From NCBI RefSeq assembly GCF_036365525.1, contig NC_090388.1:31037518-31101517 (forward strand): a stretch of 64,000 bases of DNA, in the 5' to 3' direction. The notes beneath the pieces were generated by a model. It saw nothing but the letters and a program-made list of their open reading frames with translations, ran no database searches and was not told the DNA's origin. Source of the stretch: Heterodontus francisci (taxonomy: Eukaryota). The translations under genes and the position numbers were made by a program. Shown piece after piece: positions 2,381 to 58,900 of this stretch (the stretch's first letter is position 1; each line of letters begins with the position of its first letter).

Positions 2381-2397
2381 TCTTTACTTGGTCTTAT

Positions 2398-9200: not shown

Positions 9201-12200
9201 GAAAAGGAATGTGGAGTACCTGAGGGTCCTAAAATGGAAGGAAATAAAAATGAACTATTATGCAGAACTATTAAAATATATCCAGTCTTTCTCCCCAGTG
9301 CACATACCCTGCTCCATATTTACTGAAATCCCTCTTCGACTGAAACGTGTAGAGAGTCAATGCAATGAATACAGCTGTCGTAAGAACAAATGCTTGCAGA
9401 ACCACTGAATAGTCATAGAAAGTAACTAAAAATGAAAAAGAGATTTAAAACATGGTTATCACAGGGTTTCAAGATAGATACTTCACATATTTATATCTCT
9501 GAAGCAACACTTGATGTACTGTAGTATCCGACAGGATTAGGCACAAGATGATTGATTAATACAAGCAATTCCATACAGGTGAACAAAAGATACAGTGGAG
9601 CTCTCAGATTTCAATTTGCGAAATTAAAACAGTATATTGCTTTCCTGCAAGTCACAGTGGAACATAACCAGATTTTTTTTGAGGCATGTTACCAGCATTC
9701 TCAAACAAATTAACCTAATAAGAGTGTCAACAAAAGCTAATTAATTTTTGCCAAGCAATGTCAGATGCCTAATGGTGAATTTGAATATCAATCCAACCTA
9801 AACAGTTCTTTTGGTCAGCCAGGGATCTGATATACACATAAATCCATCATGATGTTTGACAGTCAGGACCGCAGCGGTTCAAGAAGGCAGCTCACCACCA
9901 CCTTCTCAAGGGCAATTAGGCGTGGGGAATAAATGCTGGCTGAGCCAGCGATGTCCACATCCCATGAATGAATAAAAAAAGTCTCCAATTCAAGGTACTG
10001 GGAAAACTACACTCACCTGCAAGTTTTTGGTTTATCTAAAATAAAGTCCACACTCTCTCCCCAATAAAGACACATTCCATTTCCCTGTACCCACACAGCC
10101 AAGGTGCAAGTTGGCAAAGAGAAGACTTAGAAACTCCCAACTGTGCGCAGAGCTATAGTGGACTTTAACAAGCTAAAACTGCAGTTTACCAAAGCATGTT
10201 GTTACTTGTCCAACTAGGATTACCTTATCCACTGGAGTTATCTGGAGCTATTGCAGGAAAAATCCTAGTTCCACACTGACTGATTCTATTAGATCAATTA
10301 CATCGGAGTATTGTGGGCCTGCTTGGCTCAGACTTTTACCAAGATTGCGGCAGAAGATTAACTTGGTTCCAAACTTTAAATTACCAAGTGTATTATCTTA
10401 CAATCATATTGATACCAAGAATCATCATCAACCACCCCACCATTTGAGGAATTATAAACCATTCAATATAATAGCAATTGAACTCCAAAACTGAGTTACG
10501 ATCATGCAATTTTGGCAATCAAAATCCTTGATTTGCTAGAAAAAAAGCTGATCCTATACAGGATTCAATCTAGAGATTTCACTAGATTTTAACCACATTG
10601 AAAGAAACATTAATGCAGATTGTATCTGCCACAAGATGTCACCACTAACACTTACTAATCCCCTTATTAAACAGCACAATATGCTCATGTAACATACAAA
10701 TGCCCATTTACAGGCAGAAATGAGGGTTGGGCTAGGGCCTAATTTTCATGTGTGTAAAAGTGCTGAGGGAGGTCTGTAGACAGGATCCATAGCAGGTTCG
10801 TGAAACTTGCACTCCATCCAGCTCCAATTTATAACAATTCAGCATCCAAGTTAGGATCTGCTGATACATTACTACATTCTGGTAGCACAAAACATTATAA
10901 CACAGTTCTTTTTAAATTTCAGGAGGTTGTGGGGAAACTTGCTTCTAACATGAGAGGTCAATTTAAAAAAATCTAGTGATAAGAATATAAACATGTTTTT
11001 ATATTATTGTAATACAGAACAACTAATGTAAATAGAATTGGTTTAAACTGTGTGCTTGCAAATTCTATCTTTTCCCTTCAATGACACTGATAACATTGAG
11101 AAGGATGAATGGGGGAGACGTGGTGGTAATATCACTGTACTCGTAATCCAAAGGCCCAGGCTAATGCTCTGGGGACACAGGTTCAAATCCCATTATGGCA
11201 GCTGGTGGAATTTAAATTCAGTTAATAAAAATTTGGAATTGAAAGCTAGTCTCGGTAATGGTGCCATGAAACTATTATCGATTGTCGGTTTAAAAAAAAA
11301 ACCCATCTGGTTCACCAATGTCCTTCAGGGAAGGAAATCTGCCATCCTTACCTAGTCTGGCCTACATGTGACTCCAGACCCACAGCAATGTGGCTGACTC
11401 TTAACTGCCCTCTGAAATGGCCTAGCAAGCCACTCAGTTCAAGGGCAATTAGAGATGCTGGCCTGCCAGCGATGCCCACATCACATGAAAGAACAAAAAG
11501 AAATTTCAGGGCTGAATACATTGTACTGCAAGTTAGGCACATACAGATTATTAAATAAATAAGCTGGTTGGCATGAATGATATAACACAGAGCTAAAAGT
11601 ACTGTTTGTTTCTAAAATACTATGCTGTACTAAATACTAAAAAAATTCCAAGACCTAGCCTTTACTAGATACATGTAGGAAGATGCAAATGCCCGCACAG
11701 AACGGGAGGTTAAACATTTTAAATGCTGCTTTAGTGCCATACTTTTGGGGTGGAGGGACAAAAGTTGGAAACCTTTGCTTCAATACAAGTTGAGCAGTTG
11801 ATCTGATAGCCTGAATCCTAAAAGAAGTGGCTGCAGAGAAAGTAGATGCATTGGTTGTGATCTTCCAAAATTTCCTGGATTCTGGAAAGGTGCCAGCCAA
11901 TTGGAAAACCACAAATGCAATACTGCTATTCAAGAAAGGAGGGTGACAGAAAGTAGGAAACTATAGGCCAGTTAGCTTAACATCTGCTATCGGGAAAATG
12001 CTAAAATCCATTGAGGAGGTAATAGCAGGACATTAAAAAAATTATAATACAATCACGCAGAGTCAATATGGCTTTGTGAAAGGGAAATCATGTTTGGCTA
12101 ATTTATTAGAGTTCTTTGAGGAAGTAACAAGCAAGCTGGATAATGGGGAATCTGTAGATGTGGTGCAATTGGATTTCCAAAAGGCATTCGATAAGGTGCC

Positions 12201-15200
12201 ACATAAAAGGTTACTACACAAAATAAGGACTCATGGAGTAGGGGGTAACATATTAGCATGGATAGAGGATTGGTTAGCTAACAGGAAGTAGGGAGTAGGG
12301 ATAAATGGGTCATTTTCGGGTTGGCAAGCTGCTACTCGTGGAGTGCCACAAGGATCAGTGCTGGGTCTCAACTATTTACAATTGATATAAATGACTTGGA
12401 TGAAGGGATCAAATGAAGGTAGCTAAATTTGCTGATGACACAAAGGTAAGTAGGAAAGTAAGCTGTCAAGAGGTCACAAAGAGTCTACAAAGAGATATAG
12501 ATAGGTTAAGTGAGTGAGCAAAAATTTGACAGATGGAGTATAATGTGGGAAAATATGAACTTGTCCACTTTGGCAGCAAGAATAGAAATGCAGTATGTTA
12601 TTTGAATGGAGGGAGACTGCAGAACTCTATGGCGCCCCCTCCGCACAGTGCCCCCGCGTTGGCTGTGGTGGGGAAGAGACGGTCGCACACCTCCTCCTGG
12701 AATGTGCCTTTGCAAAGCAGGTGTGGAAAGAGATGCAGTGGTTTTTGTCAAGGTTCATCCCAAGCAGCTCTGTAACACAGGAGTCTGTGCTCTACGGGCT
12801 GTTCCCAGGGACGCACACCGAGACAAACATCAACTGCTGCTGGAGGACTATCAATTCGGTGAAAGACGCCCTTTGGTCTGCCCATAACTTGCTGGTCTTC
12901 CAGCGCAAAGAGTTGTCCACCACCGAATGTTGCAGAATGGCACATTCCAAGGTCCAGGACTACGTGCTGAGGGACGCACTAAAGCTTGGGGCAGCCGCAG
13001 CAAAGGCTCAATGGGGAAAGAGCAGAGTGTAAGGTTCCCCCACCAAGCTGGACTGAGGGGCTGGATTCATGGGAAACCCCTCGAACTGTATCGTTAATAT
13101 TCTCAATTGCTGTAAATGTAAAACTGTAATTGACATGACATTTGTGAAACGGAAGGGTTGGGAAGAAACTCATGACAGTATTGAAGGAAACTGATCTCCC
13201 TTGCAATGTTTGTATTTTTTGGTGCTGTTTGGAAACTGTTTGGCAATGTAATTTTTACAGATTTTTATGAATAAAGTATATTTTGGAAATAAAAAAAAAC
13301 TCTATGGTGCAGAGAAATCTGGGTGTCCTGGAGCATGAATCACAAAAGGTTAGTATGCCGGTCCAGGAAGTGACTAGGAAGACAAATGGAATGTTGCCGT
13401 TTATTGCAAGGGGAATAGAATATAAAAGTAAGGAAGATTTGCTACAGCTATACAAGGCCTTGGTGAGAACACATCTGGAGTACTGTATACACTTCTGGTC
13501 TACTTACTTAAAGGATATAACTGCACTAGAAGCAGTTCAGATAAGGTTCACTCGACTGATTCCTGGGATGAAGGAGTTGTCTTAGGAGGAAAGGCTGAGC
13601 CTATACCCATTAGAGTTTGGAAGAATCAAACATATAAAATCCTGAGGGGACTTGATAGAGTGGATGTTGAGAGATGTTTCCCCTTGTCTAGAACTAGGGG
13701 ACACAGTTTAAAAATTAGGGATACTGAGATGAGCAGAATTTTTTTTCTCTCAGAGGCTCGATCGTCTGTGGAATTCTCTTCCCCAGAGAGCAGTAGAGGC
13801 TAGGTCATTGAATATATTCAAAGCCGAGTTGGATAGACTTTTGATCAACAAGGGTTATGGGGAACAGACAGGAAAGTGGAGTTGAGGCCAGAGTCAGATT
13901 AGATCAGCCATCATCTTATTGAATGGTGGAGCAGGCTCGAGGGGCCGAATGGCCTACTCCTGCTCCTAATACAGTGTTCTGTATTGTGCCAAGCTTGCAC
14001 TTAAAATTGCAGAAGAGGAAAACCGTATCGTTGATGACACCATTATTAAAGTAAAAACATAAACAAAGCATTGTCAACAGCTTATTAACAATGGATTCTC
14101 ATTAGTGTTGCTCATTAGTCTGCAGCATGTTTCTGATTTTTAGCCACTAGCCTTGCCTCTCCATTTAAGGGCACCATAGAGTACCAGGAAATTATAAACT
14201 GATTGCAAGTTTCAAGTTCCAGGTCACTGATTGGATTTTACTCTCTTTTTAAAAACGATTTTGCGTTTGTAACATAATGGTATGTTTGGTATGTGGTGGA
14301 ATATGCTACATACAAGTGTTAAGTATATATATTTTTTAAATTGAACATATTAAAAAACTTGATTCGTGCCATTAAGTTTTATTTTTTTTTTTAAGAGATA
14401 CAGCACTGAAACAGGCCCTTCAGCCCACCGAGTCTGTGCCGCCCATCAACCACCCATTTGTACTAACCCTATACTAATTCCATATACCACATCCCCACCT
14501 GTCCCTATATTTCCCTACCACCTACCTATACTAGGGGCAATTTATAATGGCCAATTTACCTATCAACCTGCAAGTCTTTGGCATGTGGGATGAAACCAGA
14601 GCACCCGGGAGGAAACCCACGCAGACACAGGGAGAACTTGCAAACTCCACACAGGCAGTACCCAGAATTGAACCCGGGTCACTGGAGCTGTGAGGCTGCG
14701 GTGCTAACCACTGCGCCACTGTGCCGCCCTCAGAACAAAGAACAACCTTGCATCCAAGTTGATTAAGCTATGTGAAAAGTGAGTAGAGAATGTGACCATG
14801 TACAAGCATGGGAAAAAAATGAAATGGAGAAAATGGAAATGTTTAGGTCCTAAGAGGGACTTAATCTAATCATTTTCCATTACGAAATGAATACAATTTA
14901 TGAATATATAATACATAACTCCTCAGGAAAAGTATACGAAATGTTATTCTGAGTGATGTTTTCATAGCATACTTTCCCAAACCATATTCTGTTTGTGGTA
15001 AAACATTGAAACAATCAGAATGTTCACATCTACACGGTTGCATCGTCCTCATTTTCAAACAAAGTACCCATTACTTCGAAAAATATCTCCCATGTGATGG
15101 AAATCAAAATATGTTACATCTTCCTGCAAGTAAGATCTGAAAATTGAGAAAAAGACCTTACCAGCAGTAGCCACAGTACAAGCCTCCAGCAGGGTCTGTG

Positions 15201-19662: not shown

Positions 19663-19994
19663 GGGCGGCACACTAGTTAGCCTCACAGCTCCAGGGACCT
19701 GGGTTCGATTCTGGGTACTGCCTGTGCGGAGTTTGCAAGTTCACCCTGTGACCGCATGGGTTTTCGCCGGGTGCTCTGGTTTCCTCCCACAGCCAAAGAC
19801 TTGCAGGTTGATAGGTAAATTGGCCATTATAAATTGCCCCTAGTATAAGTAGGTGGTAGGGGGATATAGGGAAGGTGGGGATGTGGTAGGAATATGGGAT
19901 TAGTGTAGGATTAGTATAAATGGGTGGTTGATGGTCGGCACAGACTCGGTGGGCCGAAGGACCTGTTTCAGTGCCGTATCTCTAAATAAATAAA
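19663..19994 (+). mobile_element. HE1-like V-SINE
   Basis: Same family as 14384-14729; (TAAA)n tail. Confidence 0.9.
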
Positions 19995-20281
19995 TGACTA
20001 TTAACTTTATGATCTGGATAAATTCAACTGGCTTTCCAAGTCAGCAGGCTGAAAGGAAGGCAGGCAAGCAGACCTGCACAGCCTAAACAGAGAGAGAGAA
20101 AAAACAGCTGCTAAGAATTGAACCTAATTCGAAAGTTGAGATTTGCAGAGGAGAAAAGACCAACAGGGTCACCAGCAATTGCCTTATTAACAGAAGTCCA
20201 GGTTGAATGTGCTTGGAGGAAGTGAGCGAAGAGGACATTGGCTTTGAGAAGGACTGGGAGATCCAACCCATTGCAACTTGG

Positions 20282-23200
20282 AGGAGTCTGCTGTCCTTAC
20301 CTGGTCTGGCCTACATGTGACTCCAGACCCACAGCAATGTGGTTAACTCTTACATGCCCTCTGAAATGGCCTAGCAAGCCACTCAGTTGTACCTAACCGC
20401 TACGAAGTCAATAAAAAGGAATGAAACCAGACGGACCACCTGGCATCAACCTAGGCACCGGAAACAACAACGGCAAACCCAGCCCTGTCAACCCTGCAAA
20501 GGCCCCCATCTGGGGGCTTGTGCCAAAGTTGGGAGAGCTGTCCCACAGACTAATCAAGAAACAACCTGACATAGTCATACTCACGGAATCATACCTTACA
20601 CACAATGTCCCAGACACTGCAATCACTATCCCTGGGTATGTCCTGTCCCACCGGCAGGACACACCTAGCAGAGGTGGCGGGACAGTGGTCTACAGTAGGG
20701 AGGGAGTTGCCCTGGGAGTCCTCAACATCAATTCCAGACCCCATGAAGTCTCATGGCATCAAGTCAAACATGGGCAAGGCAACCTCCTACTGATTACCAC
20801 CTACCACCCTCCCTTAGCTGATGAGTCAGTACTCCTCCATGTTGAACACCACTTGGAGGAAGGACTGAGGATGGCAAGGGCACAAAATGTACTCTGGGTG
20901 GGGGACTTCAATGTCCATCACCAAGAGTGGCTCGGTAGCACCATTACTGACCGAGCTGGCCGAGTACTAAAGGACATAGCTGCTAGACTGGGTCTGCGGC
21001 AGGTGGTGGGGGAACCAACATGAGAGAGAAACATACTTGACCTTGTCCTCACCAATCTGCCTGCTGCAGATGCTTCTGTCCATGACTGTATGATAGGAGT
21101 AACCACCGCACAGTCCTTGTGGAGACGAAGTCCAGCCTTCACATTGAGGATACCCTCCATCGTGTTGTGTGGCACTATCACCGTGCTAAATGGGATAGAT
21201 TTCGAACAGATCTAGCAAAGCAAAACTGGGCATCCATGAAGCGCTGTGGATCATCAGCAGCAGCAGAATTGTACTCAACCACAATCTGTAACCTCATGGC
21301 CCGGAATATCCACCATTCTACCATTACCATCAAGCCAGGAGACCAACTCTGGTTCAATGAAGAGTGCAGGAGGGCATGCCAGGAGCAGCACCAGGCATAC
21401 CTCAAAATGAGGTGTCAACCTGGTGAAGCTACAACCCAGGACTACTTGCATGCCAAACTGCATAAGCAGCATGCAATAGGCAGAGCTAAGTGATCCCATA
21501 ACCAATGGATCAGATCTAAGCTCTGCAGTCCTGCCACATCCAGTCATGAATGGTGGTGGACAATTAAACAACTAACTGGAGGAGGTGGCTCCACAAATAT
21601 CCCCATCCTCAATGATGGGGGAGCCCAGCACATCAGTACGAAAGATAAGGCAGAAGCATTTGCAGCAATCTTCAGCCAGAAGTGCCGAGTCGATGATCCA
21701 TCTTGGCCCCCTCCTGAAGTTCCCAGCATTACAGATGCCAGACTTTAGCCAATTCGATTCACGGCGCGTGATATCAAGAAACGACTGAAGGCACTGGATA
21801 TTGCAAAGGTTATGGGTCCTGACAATATTCCGGCAATAGTACTGAAGACCTGTGCTCCAGAACTTTCCGCACCCCTAGCCAAGCTGTTCCAGTATAGCTG
21901 CAACACTGGCATCTACCCGGTGATGTGGAAAATTGCCCAGGTAAGTCCCGTACACAAAAAGCAGGACAAGTCCAACCTGGCCAATTACCGCCCCATCAGT
22001 TGACTCTCAATCATCAGTAAAGTAATGGAAGGTGTCATCAACAGTGCCATCAAGCAGCACTTGCTTAGCAATAACCTGCTCAGTGATGCTCAGTTTGGAT
22101 TCTGCCAGGGCCACTCAGCTACTGACCTCATTACAGCCTTGGTTCAAACATGGATAAAAGAGCTGAACTCAAGAGGTGAGGTGAGAGTGACTGCCCTTGA
22201 CATCAAGGTAGCACTTGACCGAGTATGGCATCAAGGAGCCCTAGCAAAATGGAGTCAATGGGAATCAGGGGGAAAACTCTCTGCTGGCTGGAGTCATACC
22301 TAGTGCAAAGGAAGATGGCTGTGGTTGTTGGAGGACAATCATCTGATCCAGGACATCACTGCAGGAGTTCCTCAGGGTCGTGTCCTAGGCCCAACATGCT
22401 TCAGCTGCTTCATCAATGCCCTTCCTTCAATCATAAGGTCAGAAGTGGGGATGTTGGCTGATGATTGCACAATGTTCAGCACCATTCGCAACTCCTCAAA
22501 TACTGAAGCAGTCTGTGTAGAAATGCAGCAAGACCTGGACAATATCCAGGCTTGGGCTGATAAGTGGCAAGTAACATTTGCGCCACACAAGTGCCAGGCA
22601 ATGACCATCTCCAACAAGAGAGAATCTTACCATCTCACCTTGACATTCAAATGGCATTACCATCGCTGAATTCCCCACTATCAATATCCTAGGGGCTACC
22701 ATTGACCAGAAACTGAACTGGAGTAGCCATATAAATACCGTGGCTACAAGAGCAGGTCAGAGGCTAGGAATCCTGCGGCGAGTAACTCACCTCCTGACTC
22801 CCCAAAGCCTGTCCACCATCTACAAGGCACAAATCAGGAGTGTGATGGAATACTCTCCACTTGCCTGAATGGGTGCAGCTCCAACAACACTCGAGAAGCT
22901 CGACACCATCCAGAACAAAGCAGCCCACTTGATTGGCACACCATGCACGAACATTCACTCCCTCCACCACAGATGCACAGTGGCAGCAGTGTGTACCATC
23001 TACAAGATGCACTGCAGCAGCGCACCACGGCTCCTTAGACAGCACCTTCCAAACCCATGACCTCTACCACCTCGAAGGACAAGAGCAGCAGATGCAATGG
23101 GAACATCACCACCTGCAAGTTCCCCTCCAAGTCACACACCATCCTGACTTGGAACTATATCGCCGTTCCTTCACTGTCGCTGGGTCAAAATTCTGGAACT

Positions 23201-23357
23201 CCCTTCCTAACAACACTGTGGGTGTACCTACCTCACATGGACTGCAGCGGTTCAAGAAGGCAGCTCACCACCACCTTCTCAAGGGCAATTATGGATGGGC
23301 AATAAATGCTGGCATAGCCACTGACGCCCACATCCCATGAATGAATATTAAAAAAAA
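20282..23357 (+). mobile_element. Near-full-length single-ORF CR1/L2-group LINE (APE endonuclease + RT), few disablements
   Basis: APE: PDIVILTES, VGDFNVHH, LDLVLT. RT: GPDNIP, NYRPIS, QFGF, ALDIKVALDRVWH, GVPQG, ADD. A tail present. The 5' end is shared with the SINE at 11112. Confidence 0.93.
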
Positions 23358-27870: not shown

Positions 27871-29071
27871 TGATTATTTGCAAGATGCATTGGTCCCTCT
27901 GCGCATGCACACCCTGTTTGGGACTGTACATGTGCACTCGATCGGTCGCTTTCCTGCATGCGCCCTGTCTTTGGAGTGCTGACTGGAGAGCAAACCAGAA
28001 GTGGGGCCTGACTGCCAAAATACGTTGGTTCCCCAGCCTGGTGCCTGAAGCAAATGTGGATCCTAGGCCTCGCTTGGTAGGCAAAAAGAACCAGGAACTA
28101 CTGACAAGTGGCCTATAAGCAGCAGCAGCTGTGTACTTCCAGGCTCGGCAAGGCAAGGTAACAAGCTCAGGAACAACATGCTTAGCAGACTCCAGAAACA
28201 GGAGATAGGAAATGGAGACTGCCTGCCAAAGCACGTTGTTGCCGTTCCCAAGTCTGTTATGTTGCCTTGCTGAGTTTGGAGGCAGGCAGCTGCTGCTGAA
28301 GCTGGTATGGTATTATTGTTCATGCTGCTGTCCAGAGAGCAATAATGCACTCAGACATTTAATGATGTTTTGTGCTGCTTATCAGGCTACTTGTAAGTCA
28401 TTCCTGGTTTTTGCTGTCTACCAAGCAAGGCCTCAGATCCATATTTATGAGTTCTCTAATAATGATTAGTGGCTGTCCTCTTTTTGCCGGGTGTGGGAGA
28501 TGAGAGGGGGAGATAAACAATGTCTTTTGAGATTGATGTAGCTCCAGTATGACTGGCGATGAAAGTTTAGGACCACCTCTACACTGAGCGGTGGACTCAG
28601 TAATATAGTACCTAGGCAATCAGGGGCTGAAATGAATGGGGGAAAAGTCATGTGCTGGAAAGCACAGAGGCAGAAAACTCCAGCCATGGTGTTCAAATTG
28701 ATACCATCAAATCAGGTGACCAGCCCTGATGTAATGAGAAGTATGGAACAACTTGCCAGGAGCAGCACCATGCATAGATGCAAATGAGGTGCTAGCGTAG
28801 TGAAGCTACAGCAAAGAACTACATGTATGCTGACTTATAGAATTTTACAGCACCGCAGGAGGCCACACTTGTGCCAGCTCTTTAAAACAGCTATTCAATT
28901 TAGATAACAGAGGATATTACAAAGCTAACTACAGATCCACTTTGTGCATTCTACCATATCACTGTTCTCACGTGATTTGCTTTTTCCTCAGTCATCACAA
29001 TATCACTGTGAGCTCTGAAACCTGTTTGCCTGTCTAACCGGATCAAATTACACATTGTGGAGAATATTGAA

Positions 29072-29170: not shown

Positions 29171-29554
29171 TGGAGAATATTGAATTACTCTACATCAGGC
29201 AGGATCAAATTACACATTTCAGAATAACTGTTGTCCTCCAAGGGAACCAATCAGAAATCTTGTCCAACCCACTTCTGTTGCAAATAAACGCTGCTATTGG
29301 AGATTGAGAACAGACAGGACATGGGGTGGTGAGTTAAAATAGCAAGCTGGAATCTCAGGGCTATGCTTGCAGATTGATCTGCAGTTGACGTTGCTATTCG
29401 TTCATTCGCAACTTGTCCGAGTCAGAGGAAATAATGCAGTCTAGAGCCAGTATGGCCCCAGTATCAGTATTGTTGACCCTTTTCCTCTGTAGGGTATCAA
29501 CTGACGTGATGGATAAAGATACACTGTAAACCAAAGTCCAATATAACTTCACTT

Positions 29555-29866
29555 TTATTTTTTTATTTAGAGATACAGCACTGAAACAGGCCCTTCGGCC
29601 CACCGAGTCTGTGCCGACCATCAATCACCCATTTATACTAATCCTACAACATCCCCACCTGTGCCTCTATTCCCCTACCACCTACCTATACTAGGGGCAA
29701 TTTACCTATCAACCTGCAAGTCTTTTGGTGGTAGGTGGAAACCGGAGTACCCGGCGAAAACCCACGCAGACACAGGGAGAACTTGCAAACTCCACACAGG
29801 CAGTGCCCAGAATTGAACCGGGGTTGCTGGAGCTGTGAGGCTGTGGTGCTAACCACTGTGCCGCCC
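29555..29866 (-). mobile_element. HE1-like V-SINE
   Basis: Same family as 14384-14729. Confidence 0.9.
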
Positions 29867-32462: not shown

Positions 32463-34168
32463 TCTTTCTTTTTTCTTTTGTGCCTCCTTATCTCGAGAGA
32501 CAATGGATACGCGCCTGGAGGTGGTCAGTGGTTTGTGAAGCAGCGCCTGGAGTGGCTATAAAGGCCAATTCTGGAGTGACAGGCTCTTCCACAGGTGCTG
32601 CAGAGAAATTTGTTTGTTGGGGCTGTTGCACAGTTGGCTCTCCCCTTGCGCCTCTGTCTTTTTTCCTGCCAACTACTAAGTCTCTTCGACTTGCCACAAT
32701 TTAGCCCTGTCTTTATGGCTGCCCGCCAGCTCTGGCGAATGCTGGCAACTGACTCCCACGACTTGTGATCAATGTCACACGATTTCATGTCGCGTTTGCA
32801 GACGTCTTTATAACGGAGACATGGACGGCCGGTGGGTCTGATACCAGTGGCGAGCTCGCTGTACAATGTGTCTTTGGGGATCCTGCCATCTTCCATGCGG
32901 CTCACATGGCCAAGCCATCTCAAGCGCCGCTGACTCAGTAGTGTGTATAAGCTGGGGATGTTGGCCGCTTCAAGGACTTCTGTGTTGGAGATATAGTCCT
33001 GCCACCTGATGCCAAGTATTCTCCGAAGGCAGCGAAGATGGAATGAATTGAGACGTCGCTCTTGGCTGGCATACGTTGTCCAGGCCTCGCTGCCGTAGAG
33101 CAAGGTACTGAGGACACAGGCCTGATACACTCGGACTTTTGTGTTCCGTGCCAGTGCGCCATTTTCCCACACTCTCTTGGCCAGTCTGAACATAGCAGTG
33201 GAAGCCTTACCCATGCGCTTGTTGATTTCTGCATCTAGAGACAGGTTACTGGTGATAGTTGAGCCTAGGTAGGTGAACTCTTGAACCACTTCCAGAGCGT
33301 GGTCGCCAATATTGATGGATGGAGCATTTCTGACATCCTGCCCCATGATGTTCGTTTTCTTGAGGCTGATGGTTAGGCCAAATTCATTGCAGGCAGACGC
33401 AAACCTGTCGATGAGACTCTGCAGGCATTCTTCAGTGTGAGATGTTAAAGCAGCATCGTCAGCAAAGAGGAGTTCTCTGATGAGGACTTTCCGTACTTTG
33501 GACTTCGCTCTTAGACGGGCAAGGTTGAACAACCTGCCCCCTGATCTTGTGTGGAGGAAAATTCCTTCTTCAGAGGATTTGAACGCATGTGAAAGCAGCA
33601 GGGAGAAGAAAATCCCAAAAAGTGTGGGTGCGAGAACACAGCCCTGTTTCACACCACTCAGGATAGGAAAGGGCTCTGATGAGGAGCCACCATGTTGAAT
33701 TGTGCCTTTCATATTGTCATGGAATGAGGTGATGATACTTAGTAGCTTTGGTGGACATCCGATCTTTTCTAGTAGTCTGAAGAGACCACGTCTGCTGACG
33801 AGGTCAAAGGCTTTGGTGAGATCAATGAAAGCAATGTAGAGGGGCATCTGTTGTTCACGGCATTTCTCCTGTATCTGACGAAGGGAGAACAGCATGTCAA
33901 TAGTCGATCTCTCTGCACGAAAGCCACACTGTGCCTCAGGGTAGACGCGCTCGGCCAGCTTCTGGAGCCTGTTCAGAGCGACTCGAGCAAAGACTTTCCC
34001 CACTATGCTGAGCAGGGAGATTCCACGGTAGTTGTTGCAGTCACCGCGGTCACCTTTGTTTTTATAGAGGGTGATGATGTTGGCATCGCGCATGTCCTGG
34101 GGTACTGCTCCCTCGTCCCAGCACAGGCATAGCAGTTCATGTAGTGCTGAGAGTATAGCAGTATAGAG
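32463..34168 (-). mobile_element. Young 5'-truncated RTE-clade LINE with uninterrupted RT ORF
   Basis: 522-aa ORF 32525..34093 (NYRGISLL, QCGFR, FIDLTKAFD, GVKQGCVLAP, LFADD, C-terminal CSTCGRACHSRIGLYSH); 10-bp TSD TATAGTCTAT at 32453-32462 and 34169-34178. Confidence 0.95.
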
Positions 34169-34239
34169 TATAGTCTATATCAGTGAGTTATTGCATTACT
34201 GCTGGTTATGATGGAAATCTGAGTGTTACCAATGTTACT

Positions 34240-34926: not shown

Positions 34927-37900
34927 GTAAAAGATAAAGGAATTTCATTTTGCAATACATTCAATGCCCGAGGCGTGAGCAATCCAGCAAAACCTTTAGT
35001 TTCCTTACTGGCTGAAGGGGTCCACACTTGTCGTGGAGTGAGTCTTGTGTATCACATGCTCAAGCAAAATACTGTGGATGCTGGAAATCGGAAATAGAAA
35101 TTGAAAATGCTGCAAATACTCAGCAGGCCCCCGAGGAGAGTTATCGTTTCATTTCTGTGACCTAAAGATGCTACCAGACCTGCTGACTGCCGAGTATTTC
35201 TAGCACTTTCTGTTTCTTTAACTGAATTTTTCACTTTTAATTACAATTGTAACAAAGAGCAAAGTAAATAGGTCATATAAATGAGATTAAGGTCAAAGCT
35301 GAAATATCAAACATTAAAAAGTATATTAAAATATGAATTTTATCGATGGAGAAATCCAACATTCTACAAACATAAGATTAATTTTTGAGGCACAGTGAGG
35401 CTGTTCAGCAGTAATGAATTATTAATGAATTATTCAAACTGATGTCAGGAAAGGGAAAAACCACATCATGGATTCGCTAGATCTTTGGGGGCAGCTTTCT
35501 TCAAGGTCAGTGGCCATTGAGGTATTCTCACAGATAGCAAACCAGGAAGTAAAATGCACTGATGCTCCTTAACTTTTAAATAAATTTTACAGAGTGAAAT
35601 GATTGGGACATCACGTGGGATTAAGGTAGAAGCTGAAACATCATAAAAGCTTTTAAAGAAAAGTATTTTAAAAATATGCATTTTTTAATGTAATGCAGAT
35701 ATTTGACATTCCACAGCTACAAAATTAGTTTTTCAGAGACTGTTCAGTAATTCTGAGCTTAGTATGCCTTTATAAACCCGGTTACACTTTATTCAATGGT
35801 GTGTAACCTTTTCAAGGGTTTTTACAGTGAGAAAATAGCGTAAAACGGTCAGTTCAGTGATTTCTACCTTATTGCATTGTCGGGGCACCTCAACAGCGCA
35901 CCTTCTGGCGAAGCGTAAAATCACTGACAGCAACTTCTGGATTTCCATGTTTAACCGTGCATGTGCGGACTTCAGATGTTGCTGATAGTTTCAAAGGAGT
36001 AATGATGATTGCTGACAATTTCGCCATCACTACTACTGCAAAAATTGTCAATTTAACTGGCTACCTACCTGATGATATTGTTGCTGGACACCTGAAAATC
36101 CCTTTGATTCAGAGGAGTAATGTTAGCCCAAACTGACCGTTCTGCCGTCAGTACCACTGCAAGATCTAGGCAATTGTATAGGAGCTAATAACTTCAAGCT
36201 AGTTACATCACTAAGACAAAAGCACAATGCTGGAAATCTGAAATAAAAACAGGAAATGCTAGAAACACGCAGCATCTGTGGAGAGCGAAACATTTAATGC
36301 TTCAGCTTAATGACTACTGTCTAGTGATGCAAAATGCTGAAGCTCCTTAATTGATGAAGATAATCACAAGTTAACTACAGAACAAGACTGAAACGCAAAT
36401 GGGGTTATGGTACATAGCAGAGACAATTAGAACAGAAAAAATGAAAACATAATGCAAGTGTTAAAACTTGGAGGAAGGGACACCCTTCATTCATTTCACC
36501 ATAGTGATTGTGCCCGTGAGTGAAGAAGATCGATTGACCTCTTAGTTCATCCCTCCAGAAAATGTACAATTTCCCTAATCACAGCAACATTTAAGACACT
36601 TTGATACTTGGGCTTAAGCGAGGTACCTCGGGTACTGCTTTAAATTTGCAATTTTTGATTTTGAATGATGATGGGAGCCGATAGTCTTCATTGTAAATAG
36701 CCCACTAGCTCTGCTCGGGTGGCATGTGAACCATGACCACTTTGGAAAGATATGGGATGGTTGCCAGTGCCCATAGGACTATACTTCAGCACGAGTCATT
36801 GACCTGGAATATCCTCCATGGGTGCAACCAGGAAGTTAGGCCTGAAAATGCATCCGTTCCTGTGCCCATTCTGCAGACGTCAAGTAACACTCAAATTTCC
36901 TCTGAGTTTCATTAGAATACGCCTGAATGTAAAATGGACAGAAATCGGCATAAATAATCAGGGCCCAATGAATGCACCAAATAAATATCTTTAAGTATGA
37001 AGACTAAAATTTCAACTCATTTAAACATCATTCGTGCATATTAGGCACAGCATGTTTAACAACCTGCAATCGGGGAATCTTTTCAGTTTTTAATGTGACT
37101 TATATGTGTGACATAAAAATGGATTTATAGAAACTGAAAATACAGTGTCAGTTTCAGTGAGGATACTGCTAATAAGAAACAGTCAAATGCATTCAATAAA
37201 ACACCAGAAAAATAACAGTTTCCTGCTTTGTCCAAAAACCTGATTGTAATTTGAAAGCCCCTAAGCAAGCGCAATTGCAGGAAACATGCTTAATAACTGT
37301 GCAACCTGGAGGTGGGGCTATTATGAGTGAAGAGATTGATTGACAATTAAGAATTATTGGACATTTTGTACTTGCTCATGTACCTCAAGCTCAAAATTTT
37401 GCATTCTTTTGGACTGCATACTGGATTAATGCCCAGATTGTATGTGTCTCTGGGCGCAAATTTGTAGGAAATTCCATACTAACATTTCCAGGAAAGAGGA
37501 AAAACTGGGTAGGGAAAAAATTCTTATCAAAGAAGTCTTATTTGGACCACTGTTAACAAGTAGTTGAATATGCCATATGATGAATCCTTTTTTTAAAAAC
37601 ACTTCTCATTTCCTCAATGCATTCTATTGATAAAGTGGTCATATGAGAACATCATCGGGTGGAAGTGTATTTAGCAGATGCATACCTACTTTTTAATGTA
37701 AACCTTTGAAAGTTACCAGTTAGACTTCACATATCTGTATTTATCTTTCTCCAGTTACAATCGAAGACCTTGTCTCCAATTTAACTTACAAGGTGTACGG
37801 ACAGTTTCATTTTACTGATCCTTGGTGGAAAGTGACTGCAAAGATTGTGTACAAACAGAAGAAATGGTATTTACAGTGGTATCCATCTTACAGTCTGAGG

Positions 37901-43900: not shown

Positions 43901-46900
43901 CCAGAGTTACAAAAGCATGCTTTGGTCATTTATGATAAACTCAAACAAACTTGCTGGAGTAAGGGACACACCTATGTTAATGTTGATGAGCTGACTGAAT
44001 TACGTCCATCTGAGTTCAGTGTTGAAAGTGCATGGGAATCTCTAAAATTTTTAAAGGACTACAAGATTATCGTAATAGAAAACAAGCGAGTGTATCTCAC
44101 ACATTTCTACAACTGTGAGAAAGAAATTGCGTCTTGTATAGCGGAACTTGTGGAGAAACCTCCATGGCGCATTTCTGTGGAGGAAGTTCTGAGAAAAGCC
44201 AGCACTCCAATTCCGAAGGAAAGATTATCTGAGTATACAGAGCACAGTGAAGGTGTTGATTTGGACCCAGATCAGTTGAAAGCTGCTGCCATGATGTGTG
44301 TAAATCCTGTTACGGTCATTAGTGGTAAAGGCGGCTGTGGAAAGACCACGCTTGTCAGCCTTATCTTCAAGGCAGTAGTTGAAAATATGGAGAGTGCGGA
44401 AAATGAGGAACTGTTGCAAGCATGTCGAGATCTTGAGCGGGATCAGTCGGCTCCTGAAAGTTGGGATATTCCAGCAGGTAAAGCTTCCAAAGTTGCCTCT
44501 GTTGAAAAAGGTGAAGTCAGAAAAGCATCTGTGCTGTTCACTGCACCAACTGGAAAAGCAGCATCTCTTTTAAAGAAAAAAACTGGATTTGGTGCTTATA
44601 CTTTACACCAGGTAATTAGGATACAGTTATAGATAGTTCAAATCTTTTCTTTGTGTTTTAGCATGAAGTGAACAGATGACCTTTCAGAGGATTCCTAAAG
44701 CACTTTTCCTGTTATCGTGTTGGAGGCTAAATTTTTTAAAAGGAATATATTACTCCAGGCACTATGTAAAAGTCAATGATTTGTTGATCAGTTTCTCCAA
44801 CATTTTTCAAAAATAACTAAAGTATATTAATAATGTCGATTTTCAGATTTGGCATTAGGCAATATATTAAGACTAATCAACTTTGGTTACTCTGGCTGAT
44901 TTTACAGAATCAACTTAATTTATGCAGTAGGGTTGAGAAATTGCATGTAAGTCGCCTTTACAGGTTGCTGACATGGCGTGCTGGAATCTATTTGCATATG
45001 GGGATAAAAATCTTGCTTGTAATTACAATGGCTGCTAACATTTTTAATGTATATTTTAACTTCGGCAAAGGTGGCTTGGGTGAAAAGAAATGGCTGGCAA
45101 AGCCCTGTGGCTGACAAGAAATTCAGATGATGGCTAAGTGATGAAATGGGGCATTATTCCAACCCCTGCTTGATGGCTGGAAAAGTGGAAATGGTGAAGA
45201 ATGAGGTGATAGCAAGGAAGGTTTGCCGCTAGTAATCCAGATGCCTACAATAATGCTCTGGGGACATGGGTTCAAATCCCACCTTGGCAGGTGGTGAAAT
45301 TTGAATTAATTTAATAAATCTGTAATTTAAAGCTATTCTAATGGTGACCATGAAACCATTGTCGATTGTTGTAAAAATCCATCTGGTTTTAGGCCCTTTA
45401 GGGAAGGAAATCTGCCGTCCTTACCTGGTCTCGCCAACATGTCGCTCCAGACCCACAGCAATGTGGTAGACTCTTAAACCTCAGAAATAGCCTCACAGGC
45501 CACTCAGTATTAAACTGCTACAAAGTGTAAGAAAAGGCATGAAACTGGATGGACCACCTGGCATTGACCTAGGCACTGGAAACGACAACGGCAAACCCAG
45601 CCCTGTCAACCCTGCAAGGTCCTCCTTACTAACATCTGGGAGCTTGTGCCAAAATTGGGAGAGCTGTCCCACAGACTAGTCAGGCAATAGCCTGACATAG
45701 TCATACTCATGGAATCATACTTTACAGACATCAAGGCAGCATTTGACCGATTATGCCATCAAGGAGCCCTAGCAAAATTGAAGTCCATGGGAATCGGGGG
45801 GGAAAACTCTCCAGTGGTTGGAGTCATACATAGCACAAAGGAAGATGGTTGTGTTTGTTGGAGGTCAATCATCTCAGTTCCAGGACATCACTGCAGGAGT
45901 TCCTCAGGGTATTGTTCTAGGCCCAACCATCTTCAGCTGCTTCATCAATGACCCTCCCTCCGCCATAAAGTTAGAAGTGGGGATGTTTGCTGATGATTAT
46001 GCAATGTTCAGCACCATTCACGACTCCTCACATACTGACGCAGCCCATGTCCATATGCAGCAAGACCTGTACAACATCCAGGCTTGGGCTGATTAGTGGC
46101 AAGTAGGATTTGTGCCACACAAGTGCAAGGCAGTGACCATCTCAAACAAGAGAGAATCTAACCATCTCTCCTTGATGTTAAATGAAATTACCATCACTGA
46201 ATCCCCCACTATCACCATTCTGGGGGCAGGGAGGGGGGGGGGTCACCATTGACCAGAAACTGAACTGGACGAGTCATATAAATGCTGTGGCTACAAGAGC
46301 AGGTCAGAGGCTGGGAATTCTGTGGCGAGTAACTCATCTCCTGTCTCCCCAATGTGTGTCCGCCATCTGCAAGTCATAAGTCAGGAATGTGATGGAATAC
46401 TCTCCACTTGCCTGGGTGGGTGCAGCTCCAACAACACTCAAGAAGCTCGACACCATCCAGGACAAAGCAACCCGCTTGATTGGCACCCCATGCACAAACA
46501 TTCATTCCCTCCACCACCGACGCTCAGTAGCAGCAGTGTGTACCATTTACAAGATGCGCTGCAGCAGCTCACTTAGGCAACTCAGGCATCACCTTCCAAA
46601 CCCACGATCTCTACCACCTAGAAGGACAAGGGCAGCAGATACATGGGAACACCACTGCCTGCAAGTTCCCCTCCAAGCCACACACTATCCTGACTTGGAA
46701 CTATATCACTGTTCCTTCAGTGTCGCTGGGTCAAATCCTGGAATTCCCTTCCTAACAGCACTGTGGGTGTACCTACCCCACATGGACTGTAGCAGTTCAA
46801 GAAGGCAGCTCACCACCACCTTCTGGAGGGCAATTAGGAACGGGCAATAAATGCTGGCCTAGCCAGTGAAGCCCACATCCCATGAAACGAATATAAAAAA

Positions 46901-49900
46901 AAAATTCTTGTCCAAAATCTGTTTCACTATACTGTTGAAAAGTTTGTTTGGTTGTAGGCTGGAGAGGAACCATTCAAACTCAAACAATGTTGTGTGATTA
47001 GTTCAGTTTTATACCTGACTGGTAATTCCTTTTTAAATTTTTTTTTAAAGTGGTTTGATATCCCAAATATAAGACCCGCTCTTCTGAGATATGAAAAGAG
47101 CAGTTCTGTTTAAATTAAAGTATTAATTTGAGACAGTCTCAGCAAAAGAACTGGTCAGTTTGAAACTGTCAAGCAATCATTTAAATTTAGAGGGGTTGAG
47201 GGGCAGTGGGGAAGAAATTAATCGCCAGTATTTTGCAAAACTGTTGGCGTTCATTACTCCTCTGAAACTGAAATCCTCAGGAGTCCGGACATGCACAGTT
47301 AAAAATGGAAATCCAGAGGCTGCTGTCAGTGATTTCACGCTTCCCAATATTGTGCACTGTTGGAAGTTCCCCCAAATTGGAATCATTAGAAATTACTGAA
47401 CTGACCAGAACATTTCCTGTTATTATTAGTTTTGCTGTAAAAACCCTTGAAGTTGCACCTTGGTGAATGAAGTATAACTGGGTTTTTAACTAAGTGCCAA
47501 CCAGGTCAACTGACCAATCGAGCTTCACAATTGCTCTCTCTCTTCTTTAGATATGACTTCTTTCTATGAGGACGTAGTACGATCAACTGGGATGGGAGGA
47601 GTAACACTCTCTAAATAGGATTATTAATTTAAAATTATTCCAGACCTATTCTGCTTAATATCTAAACCAATATATTAAAAGCCCTATAAGTCTGATTCCC
47701 AATTTTAAATTCTACTTTAATCTTAGCAACACATTTCTCAAATTTCGCAGTACCACCCCATAAGAAATCATCACCCTGAATTATGAAGATGCCTGAAAAG
47801 TTTCCTTTATGATACTGATTAAAAAAATTGCGGGATCGGCTTTTAGTTGAACACAACCTATTTTCAGCAAAACAGATCTCTCTGAAAAATACCACACCCT
47901 GGAAGTATCATTCAGGCCATGGATGCTTTTGTTTAGTTTCCATACTTTCCCTCTGCATCTGTTACCTATTTCGGAGGTTTCAGAAACATGTCTCTCTGAA
48001 AAGTATTGCCCTGCAGAAATGTGGTTTTAAAGTCAATTGAATGACACATTCATATTCATGTGACCAAAAGAGGTGTGGGAGAGTCCACTTTAACCTCTGT
48101 ATCACCCTTTCGGTCCTCCAATTCCCTCACAGCTAGCCTCGCTTTAGCCTTTTAAGTCCAATCTACAAGAACCTTTTCAGTACAAATCCACCTATGTGAC
48201 AAAGCTGGTTGCCTTGTCTAGTACTTCAGAATAAACTCCAAATACTGTCGAACTATCTAATTCCCTTTGTTTTGCCTTTCCTATTAGATTATCCTCAAGT
48301 TTATTGGCAGCCACCAAAACTTCATGATCATGAGGACTTCTTCTAGTTCTGTCCTGAGACTGTTATGTGGCTTTTATTTCATTGTCTAATCTATCCAAGT
48401 TTCGACCTTACTTGCATTTTTATGTTTTTCTGGACCACTACTGCGAGGTCTTCCACTTGCATGATTGCAGGGTCTTTCTCTGGTACATCGTTTTCTGATG
48501 CAAGAGTCAGTTCTGGACCCACTATCAATACATGCACTGTGCTTTCTTATTCTCCATTCTTTCACCCCATTCTGCCAGTCCATGGACCTCGCTTCTTGGC
48601 CGTCATCCTGAACATCCAACCAATATTTAAACTTGGCAGTAATAAAAATAGAAAGTGCTGTAAATACTCAACAGGTTTGGCAGCATCTGTGGAGAGGGAA
48701 GCACAGTTAATGTTTCAGGTCTGTGACCTTTTAAACTTGGCAGTATATTTTCCTGCACATCCCATAATTGTCACATCCTTCCATTCATTAGACTCCTCTG
48801 GAATATATACCATTCCTTTACCCACGCTGGGCAATTGGCCTTTGGCTGTGATAGCTCTGTCGTGTGTCATGATCATTGATATTACCATGATCACTCATTA
48901 CCCTTGAACCCTTGATCTACCATATTCTGTTCCTCAGGACCTTCATCACAATACACATGAGCATTTGAGGGATAAGTTGCCTCATTTACTTCTATCAACT
49001 GCTCAGAGTCTGAGATTTTGGAATTAATTCTGATTAAACATGAGGAATGAACCTTAACAGTTTGATAAGTACTGTAATACCATCATAACCTATTACCTTA
49101 CCAGGGCCTTTCCATTCCCTATGACTTTTTTATAATAACACCAAATATCCTGAATTAAATTCTCTCAGATGGTCTTATACGATGCCTCAGTGGTGTCCGA
49201 ATTTTCTCTGAGACCTCAGCCTTGATGAAAGCCTGTCTCCCTACATGTAAAACATTTATTTACAGAGTTACACATTACAAGCTTGCGCCTCCTAACCCCA
49301 GTTTCAGTCTGTGTTTATCTATAATCAAAGATTATCGTGGGTAGATGGGAGTGTGGAATTCGAGACAGAAGCAGATCAGCCATGATATTATTGAATGGTG
49401 GAGCAGGCTCGATGGGCTGAATGGCCTACTTCTGCTCCTAACTCGTATGATATAGGGACACAGAATCCCCAGTTAGTTCCCACCCCCTGCATGTAATTAA
49501 ACACAATTAATATTGTTCAAACTGTTTATCCTGCTTGATGACATTATTGTTGCTGGATGTCTTGAGATCGCCTTGATGGTGCCAGATTCAAACTAATGTT
49601 GGGAAAGGGAAGTCTAATCTTTGTGGGCAGCTTTCTTAAGGTCAGTGGTGAGCTTCTTCACTTCACGGCTGCCCGCAAAATCTGGGCTTATTGTTAGACC
49701 GACTGCTCCAGTCAAAGCCCTCAATCAAAATATGCGATTCTGATTGTGGTAGGAGAAACGCACTGAAAATTCAATGCCATCCCTCCACAGATCTCCTAAT
49801 ATATCATTTTAAACTTGCCAAATTATACTACCCATTAACCCCTGAATGAGGCTAACCAACCCAGGTGTCTTTAAATCAACAAATTAACTGTTTAAGAATT

Positions 49901-55900: not shown

Positions 55901-58900
55901 GTGATATGAATGTGCAGTAAATTGAGACTCACTGAATATATTACTAACCATAAAATGAGTAGTATGGAGGTTAAAGCTTTGCACTCCACTAAGATTTATC
56001 TCATGGTGCTTTATGAATATAATCTGGTCTCTAAAATGGGGGCTGTGAAAAGATTAAAAAATGCTTTCACTGTATTTCTCTGTGGTAAGAGAAACACCAT
56101 GTATACAAAGATCTCCAATGTAATTCCCTTATAGAAAGGGAACCATACAAGGTAACTTTGTTTTTTATTTGATCATGGGATCTGGGTGTCCCTGGCAAGG
56201 CAACATTTATTGCCCATCCCTAAGTGCCCTTGAGAGGGTGGTGGTGAGCTGCCTTCTTGAACTGCTGCAGTCTGTGTGGTGTAGATACACCTACAGTGCT
56301 GTTAGCGAGAACGTTCCAGGATTTTGACCCAGTGACAGTGAAGGAATGGTGATATAACTATCAGGAGTCACCTGACTATCACCAAGTCAGGATGGTGTGT
56401 AATTTGGAGGGGAACTTGCAGGCGGTGGTGTTCCCATGCACCTGCTCCCTTTGTCCTAGATGGTACAGTTCATGGTTTGGAAGGTGCTGTCGAAGAAGCT
56501 TTGATGAGTTGCTGCTGTTCATCTTATAGATGGTACACACTGCAGCCATGGTGCGCTGGTGGTCAAGAGAGTGACTGTTTAAGGTGTGGCTTCAACTGCA
56601 ATTCTCATTCTTTTAAACTGGTTATATTTCATTATAAATATTGAAGTGCAATCAATAGGTGTGGCATAAAGCAGCCTCTATCTTGATAAGTTTAGATACA
56701 GTCTGGAATATGCCGCATCAGAGCATCTCTAATTTTAATGCTTTCATATGTACTGCCAGGCTGCATTGACCTAAAAACTACTCAATATGCCTTTATCTTA
56801 GAACTTGATTGTTGTAATATTGGATATATGTACAAAAGTCAACTGATGCATAAATCTGCATTACGATTTCTGACTTCCTCTTTTTATGCAGGATGGATTG
56901 TGCGTTAATTAATGAACTCTGCTGCATCCGCTATTCAGATCATCCGACTAGGTGAGAGGTGCTAAGTGTGAGACAATTTACTGTGATTGTATTTTCACCT
57001 GTATGTCTGAAGTGTTCAGCTTGTAGAAAGATAGTAAAGATACAGATTTTCCATTGCATACCAAGTTTGGTCCGTTATAGAAATTACAGCATTGTATCAG
57101 TACATGAGTAAAATACAACTACAGTCTTTAAGGGAAACATGATAAGGGTCACAAATGGCATCTATTAGCGTATTCACAACTGCTAATCTACTGTTTAGTA
57201 AGGAACATAGGAGCCGGTGTAGGCCATTCAGTTAGATCACAGCTGATCTTAATTCCATCTGCCTCCCTCCCGCCCCAATCTGTAACTCTTAATATCCCAG
57301 CCTAACTAAAATCTATCAGCCTCAGTTTTGAAATTTTCAATTGACCTAACCTCAATCACTATTTAGGAGAGAGTCTCAGATTTCCACTACCCTTCGTATG
57401 AAGAAGTGCTTTCTGACATCACTCCTGAACAGACCAGCTCTTATTTTAAGGCTTTGCCTCCTTTTTCTGGGCTCCATCACCAGAGGCAATAGTTTCTCCC
57501 TATCTTGATACTGCTGAGAATGAAACTTCTGAAATGGTTTGGGTGGTATTCTTAAGTGTTGCATACTGGAGAATCTCAGTATTTTATTTAACACAATGTG
57601 TGTGCAGTTTTCTCCCAGTTTGTTATTGCTTTGAAACCAGGTTGAACACTGAACTCATTTGGTTCTCTAAAGGAAAATAATTTTGGTTAATTCCTTTCAA
57701 TTGTAAAATATAGACTCTGTTTCATTATTAAGCCATAACAAGAGAACACATGTACAAATACGGAACTTTAAAAATCAATGTAATATTTCATGATCTAGAA
57801 TCCAATCAGCAAGAAGGGTTTCTGCTAATCTTCCACCCGTTATGGCAGTCCATTGGGAAAACCTCTGAGGAAACTCCTGATGCATATATTTATAGAATTA
57901 TTTTGTGCCGCTATTGTCCATCACGAACCATCTCAACACTTAGAACAGCAATTAAGTTGCAGATTGAGGATCTTCACATTGGGAAATACCGTTCTGGGGA
58001 ATATTCCATTATATCAGCCTGTTTTTTTTTTTATTGGAACCTCAACATGTAAAACATCCTGAGCATGGCCTTTCACATTTATTCCCAGAAATATACCAAT
58101 ATTGTTTTTAGCTTACTTCTACAAAAGCTGATAGGAACCACAGTTTTCAAATTATGACATCGATGTAGCTCGAACAAGTGGGAATTTCATTTAAATATTG
58201 AGATATGGATGGGGATATCTTACACCGTTTTCTGACATTTGTGCAATGCAGAACAACAGAGTAAATTGCATTCATTCACTGAGGCATCGAGGGAAAGTCA
58301 TACTGAAGCTCATTGCTCCTACCTGGCAGTGACCATGGGAACTATTTTTACAGTTTCGGGCAGCAGAGATCCTAATATGGAGCTGTGCTGTCTGCTGCAA
58401 AGACACCTGAGGTTAACATGCAGCATAAGGCTGGCACAGCTAGTGATTCTCTTGGTCTGCAGCAGCATCAAACTTACCTCCATCATCATTTAGGATTGTT
58501 GTGATGCTAACCTGTGTGGATAGGGCTGTGGAGTGGCAGACTGCCACCTCATGCAGTACCACCTTCACTTCAGATGCCATCAGACAGGGCGTTGGGTGTT
58601 GGACTGCTCTGTGACTTGCTTGCAGAATTCTGCCTGGTACATTGGGTCTCCTTTTCCTCAATTGTTGCTCATCACTTCTTTGCGCTCTCCTCATTCAGGC
58701 TTGCCAAAGGTTGCCAATGAGTTAAGATGCCTTTTGAGCCTTTCCAAAGGCTTTAAGAATATCTCCCCTGATTCTACTTCCCCTTTTAATTGCCTGTAAC
58801 TCCCTTTAAGTTTTACTTACAAATTTCCTCCCACCACTAGCATGCTTCCTGTACCTTGAGCTGTAAATGATTATGCAGATAGCCTGAAGGTGGAGAATTG

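Follow-up and report, generated by a model that had tools for sequence, protein, structure and literature searches.

A tRNA-headed Zenon LINE in a shark genome, free of Pol III terminators on its sense strand and a candidate for transcription by RNA polymerase III

In the textbook division of retroelements, LINEs are coding and transcribed by RNA polymerase (Pol) II, whereas SINEs are short, non-coding and transcribed by Pol III, an enzyme that normally yields only short non-coding RNAs. A 1995 paper is said to describe a functional mRNA made by Pol III, and the Pol III dependence of the L1 promoter was reportedly the subject of a 1995 paper. In R2, the LINE RNA is not made by Pol II: it is co-transcribed by Pol I in rDNA, released by an HDV-like ribozyme, uncapped, and translated without a conventional start.

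A Pol III promoter derived from a small RNA, like the one proposed here, has been described for the non-SINE retroelements Cassandra, Helenus and Ajax (TRIMp3). However, these are non-autonomous LTR elements of 0.3-1.3 kb, and their autonomous partners are expected to use Pol II (PMC10886601, in part). Passages of the same paper state that Pol III restricts element length to about 0.1-1.3 kb. CoeSINE4, Bov-tA and SINE2_Gav have the same succession of tRNA head, LINE 5' part and LINE 3' tail as the SINE described below, with RTE or Vingi as the donor clade where ours is Zenon (PMC5786205, in part). In the model given in passages of that paper a head joins a non-coding, deleted LINE; here a full coding LINE bears the head, and the order is inverted. 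Cartilaginous fish also have SacSINE1 (with L2-2_CM), a SINE in which a tRNA head is likewise combined with a tail taken from a LINE, but by its description (PMC5499810, in part) it is set apart by a Deu domain and an L2 tail, where the SINE described below has the 5' block and A tail of Zenon. In Lepidoptera, Zenon, likewise a single-ORF LINE of the CR1 group, gave rise to Persaeus, a short element built from its 5' and 3' ends. In the passages of PMC6740152 concerned, Persaeus has neither tRNA homology nor a Pol III promoter, whereas the shark LINE and SINE are both tRNA-headed. The closest system is the elasmobranch Zenon group (CarCar_, RhiTyp_, ScyCan_, HypSab_ and SquAca_Zenon), shark and ray elements that share with our LINE a single APE+RT ORF, the lack of ORF1, a poly-A tail and crustacean relatives (PMC13343379, in part).

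Identity, extent and ends of the family

We analysed a stretch of 64,000 nucleotides (the window) in which a LINE had been placed at 20282-23357. The end of that interval stands, but the element starts at 20287: the copy (20287..23357, + strand) is a decayed Zenon-type LINE that covers family positions 220-3289 plus the A tail, with 95.7% identity to the family majority. Since its 5' end lies at family position 220, the tRNA head is missing from this copy. It retains, all on the + strand, the 3' part of a near-invariant block shared with the SINE (20287..20388, family block 180-321), the remnant of a single ORF (20375..23292) with a basic N-terminal stretch, an APE endonuclease and a reverse transcriptase (RT), and the 3' end common to LINE and SINE (23301..23357), with AATAAA at 23301 and the A tail at 23350-23357. 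The preliminary description was right to read APE and RT in one frame with no ORF1; in this copy the remnants are interrupted by stops and frameshifts. Within the window the interval 20282-23357 has five further matches, including an older sibling (45229..46903, + strand, 86-89%), in which family positions 35-545 are fused to 2141-3284 by an internal deletion, and the partner SINE (11111..11500, + strand), in which family positions 1-321 run directly into the final ~70 nt of the LINE and a B box lies at 11180. The tRNA-like head ascribed to the sibling is there in part: the B box, GGTTCAAATCC at 45269, occupies 45269-45279, but the copy starts at family position 35 and the A box was removed by this truncation. 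Alignment also gave an old LINE 3' fragment on the - strand (56160..56580, 80%), a short 3' fragment (9866..9980, + strand) and an old internal fragment (28702..28830, + strand, 74%).

A first-look search of the 6.0-Gb genome returned at least 13,642 family candidates, and the family occupies 15,537 of 200,000 unselected bases (7.8%). The family majority, taken by column from the 39 best copies at full length, is 3,289 nt long. Pfam PF14529/PF03372 (APE) and PF00078 (RT) matched on natural copies, and the best relatives are single-ORF proteins of 930-1,000 aa at 41-44% identity. In RT trees the family grouped with crustacean and beetle elements (Petrolisthes, Armadillidium and Acanthoscelides proteins), apart from vertebrate CR1; bird CR1 and the CR1 of the window fell separately from it. 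No relative was found in viral contigs, and nhmmer gave no homology between the first 345 nt of the family and 74 metagenome relatives. A tree of 105 copies formed a ladder of age classes from ~14% down to 1-2%. Searches for a separate old subfamily returned the same lineage at other ages and no second family.

The family is almost certainly the published elasmobranch Zenon, a name that reflects a by-eye match to the published consensuses, as the trees contained no named Zenon reference. CarCar_Zenon-1 has 3,288 characters compared to 3,289 here and, in its first 400 nt by eye, the same head, block and upstream ATG (PMC13343379, in part). Seven consensuses from five shark and ray species in the supplement of that paper, compared by eye over the first 400 nt, open with the same head and conserved block, and the upstream ATG is present in six of the seven; the A and B boxes are kept in both shark and ray consensuses, with a variable spacer. 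The hagfish and coelacanth Zenon rows of the supplement, read in the orientation given, lack such a head over their 400 visible nt. In the main text of PMC13343379, as far as available, the terms tRNA, polymerase III, Pol III, promoter and start codon do not occur. The literature searched, with Repbase, Dfam and subscription journals outside it, describes no Pol III-transcribed or tRNA-headed autonomous LINE. The family is thus already known, and its head, its terminator purge and its missing AUG appear to be unremarked in that literature.

Agreement among alignment columns falls to background upstream of +1. Full-length copies open with GGG(G/T)AGGCGG and carry, at +11 and +75, what we take to be the A and B boxes by their fit to the box consensus. 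The commonest A box is TGGCGTAGTGG (+11 in 20 of 45 copies) and the commonest B box is GGTTCGAATCC (+75 in 28 of 59); the next commonest forms are products of CpG decay. ARAGORN placed a tRNA at +6 to +96 in three of five young full-length copies, and the head of one copy scored 17.4 bits against Rfam tRNA, under the 29-bit cut-off. Judged from its sequence, the head has the geometry of a Pol III type-2 unit, with tRNA-like A/B spacing and an A box that begins about 10 nt into the element.

The 5' ends are sharp. Among 114 loci, a sample biased to 5' ends by the use of 5' queries, 58 begin at or before +10, 19 at 11-320 and 32 further in, and five ran off the locus. When 29 copies were chosen by their 3' protein alone, eight started at +1/+2, three in the head and 17 further in, and one was not followed. 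Upstream flanks have nothing in common except in the pair L194/L242, and the upstream flank of L194 is another piece of the same family. As the preliminary description anticipated, no full-length copy extends 5' of the tRNA head or carries ORF1; only 307 nt precede the open frame. Zenon 5' ends accumulate only at +1, and the 5' 600 nt of one copy gave no Rfam ribozyme match, in contrast to R2, RTE and Ingi, LINEs whose 5' end is set by a self-cleaving HDV-type ribozyme. The commonest 3' end is GAAT(A)8-10. Target-site duplications were not clear in most of the 20 copies scanned, which yielded four short candidates.

In thirty-four short elements the sequence jumps from family position ~321 to the terminal ~70 nt. 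This SINE, of ~390 nt, is short, non-coding and non-autonomous. Its majority is identical to that of the LINE in 138 of 142 columns at positions 180-321 and in 80 of 95 columns of the head. The LINE has the tRNA-derived head of a SINE2 element but, at 3.3 kb and with an ORF under purifying selection, is neither short nor non-coding. On alignment the SINE is this LINE with the middle deleted, a SINE arising from a LINE through deletion alone.

Terminator motifs on the sense strand

A recount agrees with the preliminary description that the sense strand of 20282-23357 contains no run of four or more T (T4). The T content is 20.8%, at which a mononucleotide shuffle gives ~4.5 such runs, close to the earlier estimate of roughly five at about 22%; there are six TTT, and the "about ten" AAAA runs are ten internal runs of A4 or longer plus the A8 tail. 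The sibling has a single T4, at 45387, which is private to it, and some weak terminator motifs produced by decay. The SINE at 11112 and the fragment at 56160 have none, as had been noted. The column majority of the family is also without T4, compared to 4.7 expected from mononucleotide shuffles (P 0.007-0.01), 2.4 from synonymous-codon shuffles (P 0.04-0.06) and 1.8 from dinucleotide shuffles (P 0.15-0.18). The absence of T4 alone is weak evidence, whereas the wider terminator set gives a strong signal.

Human Pol III stops in vitro at T4+, T3VT, TVT3, T2AT2 and T2CT2 and hardly stops at isolated T3 or T2GT2 (Orioli 2011, PMC3141230, in part). These motifs formed our panel, which is that of human Pol III in vitro; the ORF counts for two classes had been seen before it was read. 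The 3,289-nt majority contains no active motif, compared to 13.1 expected from mononucleotide shuffles (0 of 3,000 as low) and 7.2 from dinucleotide shuffles (0 of 2,000 as low), and its ORF contains none, compared to 6.7 from synonymous-codon shuffles (0 of 3,000 as low). The inactive motifs were kept, with eight isolated T3 (11.4 expected) and two TTGTT (0.9 expected), and both TTVTT sites of the majority are TTGTT. The antisense strand carries 29 active motifs. The copy at 20287..23357 has neither T4 nor an active non-canonical motif (0 versus 6.7 expected), and 20 natural copies, counted without use of the majority, together have 23 active motifs versus 236 expected. Four age classes, up to 148 columns apart, have zero each. 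In the remaining one of the five, at ~2.6%, the active-type motif TATTTCT (+57 to +63), a weak terminator, lies in the part of the head that separates the A box from the B box.

The purge was not seen in other LINEs. RTE and CR1 majorities from the same genome, built like that of the LINE, contained 14 active motifs versus 14.1 expected (RTE, T 21.2%) and 24 versus 17.3 (CR1). They carry four and 11 sense T4 runs, respectively, in agreement with what had been reported of these elements. The lowest observed/expected ratio was 0.74 among 74 metagenome relatives (median 1.0) and 0.75 among 56 MAG-borne relatives (median 0.99); a frame of at least 400 codons was required (6 of 80 and 15 of 71 were dropped, L067 being dropped as a duplicate of L048), and only about ten of the relatives belong to the family's own clade. 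None of the 74 and 56 had an A and B box pair upstream, many of their contigs having little upstream DNA. L325, the sole sister-clade element with DNA, whose 5' end lies off its contig, had eight active motifs versus 9.0 expected at a T content of 20.1%. The terminator depletion that had been proposed for the LINE therefore exceeds that of shuffles and T-matched LINEs for the wider motif set, but is borderline for T4 alone.

At synonymous third positions beside at least two T, the ratio of T to C is 5:37 in the LINE, versus 24:37 in RTE and 43:30 in CR1. Near position 1387 a subfamily changed from TACTTG to TATCTG and not to TATTTG (49, 21 and 4 copies, respectively). Phe makes up 1.8% of LINE residues versus 2.2-2.8% in sister proteins, so that the low value is in part a lineage trait. 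Loss of U-runs for a cause unrelated to the head, such as innate sensing or cleavage of U-rich RNA, decay factors or splice-acceptor avoidance, would fit the general depletion of TT in the LINE (o/e 0.69) and its low TAT. However, the LINE shows no depletion of pyrimidine tracts or splice-donor motifs, motifs of the same shape built from A, C or G occur in the majority at near-expected numbers, and RTE and CR1 share the host and are unpurged. We consider such a cause very unlikely.

Terminator-creating changes showed no deficit among shared compared to private changes (8/187, 6/96 and 2/35 shared versus 31/638 private; P 0.46-0.80). The eight shared motif-creating sites comprise six scattered recurrent C>T changes, one compensated swap and one head motif. 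With scattered recurrent C>T changes making up the bulk of the shared cases, the test is low-powered, and it gives no support either. We counted this null result and the TATTTCT in the head of the ~2.6% class against transcription by Pol III, as we did the non-significance of T4 alone against dinucleotide shuffles and the human in vitro origin of the panel. The first two would also fit a Zenon transcribed by Pol II that had taken up a SINE head on a single occasion, with the head now a Pol II promoter or beside one and the poverty in T-runs a relic or compositional. LINEs normally use Pol II (PMC10886601 and PMC5786205, both in part, on non-LTR elements), and an AATAAA precedes the A tail. But a relic would hardly account for zero active motifs in four age classes so far apart, for the unpurged state of the T-matched RTE and L325, for the different treatment of active and inactive motifs, or for the retention of both boxes in shark and ray consensuses whose spacer is variable (PMC13343379, in part). 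A captured head on a Pol II element is thus quite unlikely.

Two candidate terminators were rejected. A T4 at position 1142, present in nine copies, is CpG decay of TTTCG. A 3' T-run built into the element, in the style of class T+ SINEs, was suggested by the T5A5 ends of some copies, which we read as post-insertion mutation: the combined T+A length stays at ~10-11, a single T is the commonest form whichever age class is taken, and most long T/A junctions across the genome have the form TnAn. The 3' end at 23301..23357 has no built-in T-run terminator. In 17 of 20 copies a T4 is first met 2-341 nt into the downstream flank, as for read-through SINEs. The AATAAA near the 3' end equally fits Pol II.

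The open frame and its translation start

A single open frame, 975 codons long, spans positions 308-3232 of the family majority. Single copies retain up to 941 open codons, and many keep 500-940. Changes common to at least eight copies comprise 96 synonymous, 53 missense and 1 stop, compared to 483 synonymous, 1,537 missense and 82 stop among private changes, indicating that the master lineage has been under purifying selection for its protein.

The ORF start about 140 nt from the 5' end, as first described, turned out to be peculiar to the window copy. The upstream ATG (20421..20423, + strand, family 354) is in frame there only through a net 8-nt deletion near 20501-20507, private to this copy; in the family it is out of the ORF frame. 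It is kept at +354 in 74 of 78 copies; of 68 natural 5' fragments, 62 have it 92 nt ahead of the catalytic Asn codon, which puts it out of frame by one base. The majority ORF contains no in-frame ATG before codon 284. The annotation of 46 of 50 proteins of the clade places a Met ahead of the catalytic Asn, though gene callers force starts.

We looked for other ways to enter the frame. The block at 20287..20388 ends in a hairpin containing ATG-GCC-TAG (20366-20374). Stop read-through from this ATG was rejected: 16 of 77 LINE copies, but also 10 of 25 scored SINE copies, have a changed TAG, and the changes are scattered over the tree, which points to a mutation hot spot. By eye, the spacer that leads to the ORF has a different length in two of the published consensuses, off by 1 and 4 nt (PMC13343379, in part). 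ACG at +335, tried as a start codon, is absent from the ray consensus (by eye, same source, in part). In a frame test of region 354-434 the variants were mostly CpG, and no canonical slippery site was seen. Block 180-321 folds no better than shuffles (z -0.9). The lack of an in-frame AUG before codon 284 and the lack of a structure signal in the block were likewise counted against the Pol III reading.

The protein could derive from a different transcript, capped and read through, than the one copied. Under such a split, Pol III would make the copied RNA, while Pol II, reading through from nearby promoters or across host introns, would make the capped mRNA from which the protein is supplied in trans; the element would amount to a giant SINE still bearing its own gene, the maker of the mRNA being the only difference. 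With this arrangement the head, the 5' ends and the purge are accounted for and no uncapped translation is needed, and many long-open copies of an abundant family are there to be read through. However, purifying selection on the master lineage is easiest to maintain if the protein acts on its own RNA, and the missing in-frame AUG troubles scanning ribosomes too. Supply in trans is accordingly an unlikely arrangement.

Predicted Pol III transcription and its consequences

A tRNA-derived head together with a terminator-free sense strand of 3.3 kb makes it likely that the copied RNA is made by Pol III. That Pol III makes it, by whichever route the protein is translated, we regard as highly probable; that the LINE RNA is made end to end by Pol III and serves as its own mRNA is predicted as the probable case. 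This was the central proposal of the preliminary description, and its sequence-level predictions were borne out, none of the refuting conditions it named that bear on sequence being triggered, although its picture of the ORF start does not hold for the family. What we describe is a known family with an undescribed, very specific signature.

In the proposed mechanism, the internal boxes would be bound by TFIIIC and Pol III would initiate at +1, pass the encoded A tail and stop at a T-run in the flank. Master copies gaining a terminator would give truncated RNA without the 3' recognition tail, and so leave no progeny. The uncapped RNA would then have to be translated non-canonically, which is the least certain step. 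Most likely, block 180-321 would recruit the ribosome, which would then start at a non-AUG codon or enter the frame by a -1 shift after initiating at the +354 AUG; the SINE may keep the block to reach the ribosome and capture RT. The ribosome-recruiting role of the block is the weakest step, and we infer it. Tentatively, and with a little less than even confidence, we put forward the full scheme: elasmobranch Zenon as an autonomous, natural Pol III mRNA of 3.3 kb, translated uncapped and without an in-frame AUG through a ~140-nt block kept by its SINE, with a direct deletion route from LINE to SINE.

If true, Pol III would here make a natural mRNA whose length exceeds that of known Pol III retroelements several times over, and which would appear to have been maintained across sharks and rays. 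Translation in a vertebrate would then have to start independently of a cap and possibly of an AUG. Several percent of the genome belongs to the family, and some of its copies are near-intact. Assembled contigs, which carry no start, strand or level information, contain the element in 24 runs (seven organisms and one metagenome), one of them recorded as RNA. The contigs of four runs cover all 30 bins of the element and the SINE junction, and the same SINE junction is present in contigs of four other organisms.

Tails and variable sites of the Zenon-type LINE

At the 3' ends of the Zenon-type LINE, for example in the copies at loci L033, L034, L052 and L057, the T(A)9 tail has changed to a palindromic T5A5 while the total length has remained constant. 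Across loci, TnAn was the majority form among long T/A junctions. Together, the tail change and the predominance of TnAn suggest a strong local mutation process. In the conserved block, the T of the hairpin-loop TAG (window 20372, family position 305) was the most variable T of the region in the LINE and its partner SINE alike, varying in 16% of copies. In a single case, a tRNA-Gly(GCC) was called at L299:188-258, 375 nt upstream of a full-length LINE copy.

LINE contigs in prokaryote assemblies

Many animal LINE contigs (L325-L395) were found inside species-representative prokaryote MAGs, among them those of mollusc symbionts. These contigs are host contamination.

Other families and frames in the window

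The RTE copy at 32525-34174 (minus strand) belongs to a very young family with 495 candidates, of which the best 40 copies showed 99-100% identity. The family majority carries a frame of 876 codons that opens with ATG, and the family was likely active recently. The CR1 copy at 400-1396 (minus strand) belongs to a family with 25,191 candidates and copies 94-95% identical. A second SINE family of about 330 nt, presumably HE1-like, is present in at least four copies (19679-20016, 14377-14717, 29553-29866 and 41984-42333). Plus-strand open frames at 43820-44632 and 37724-38200 resemble host helicase gene exons, with a Walker A motif, and are presumably HELB-like.
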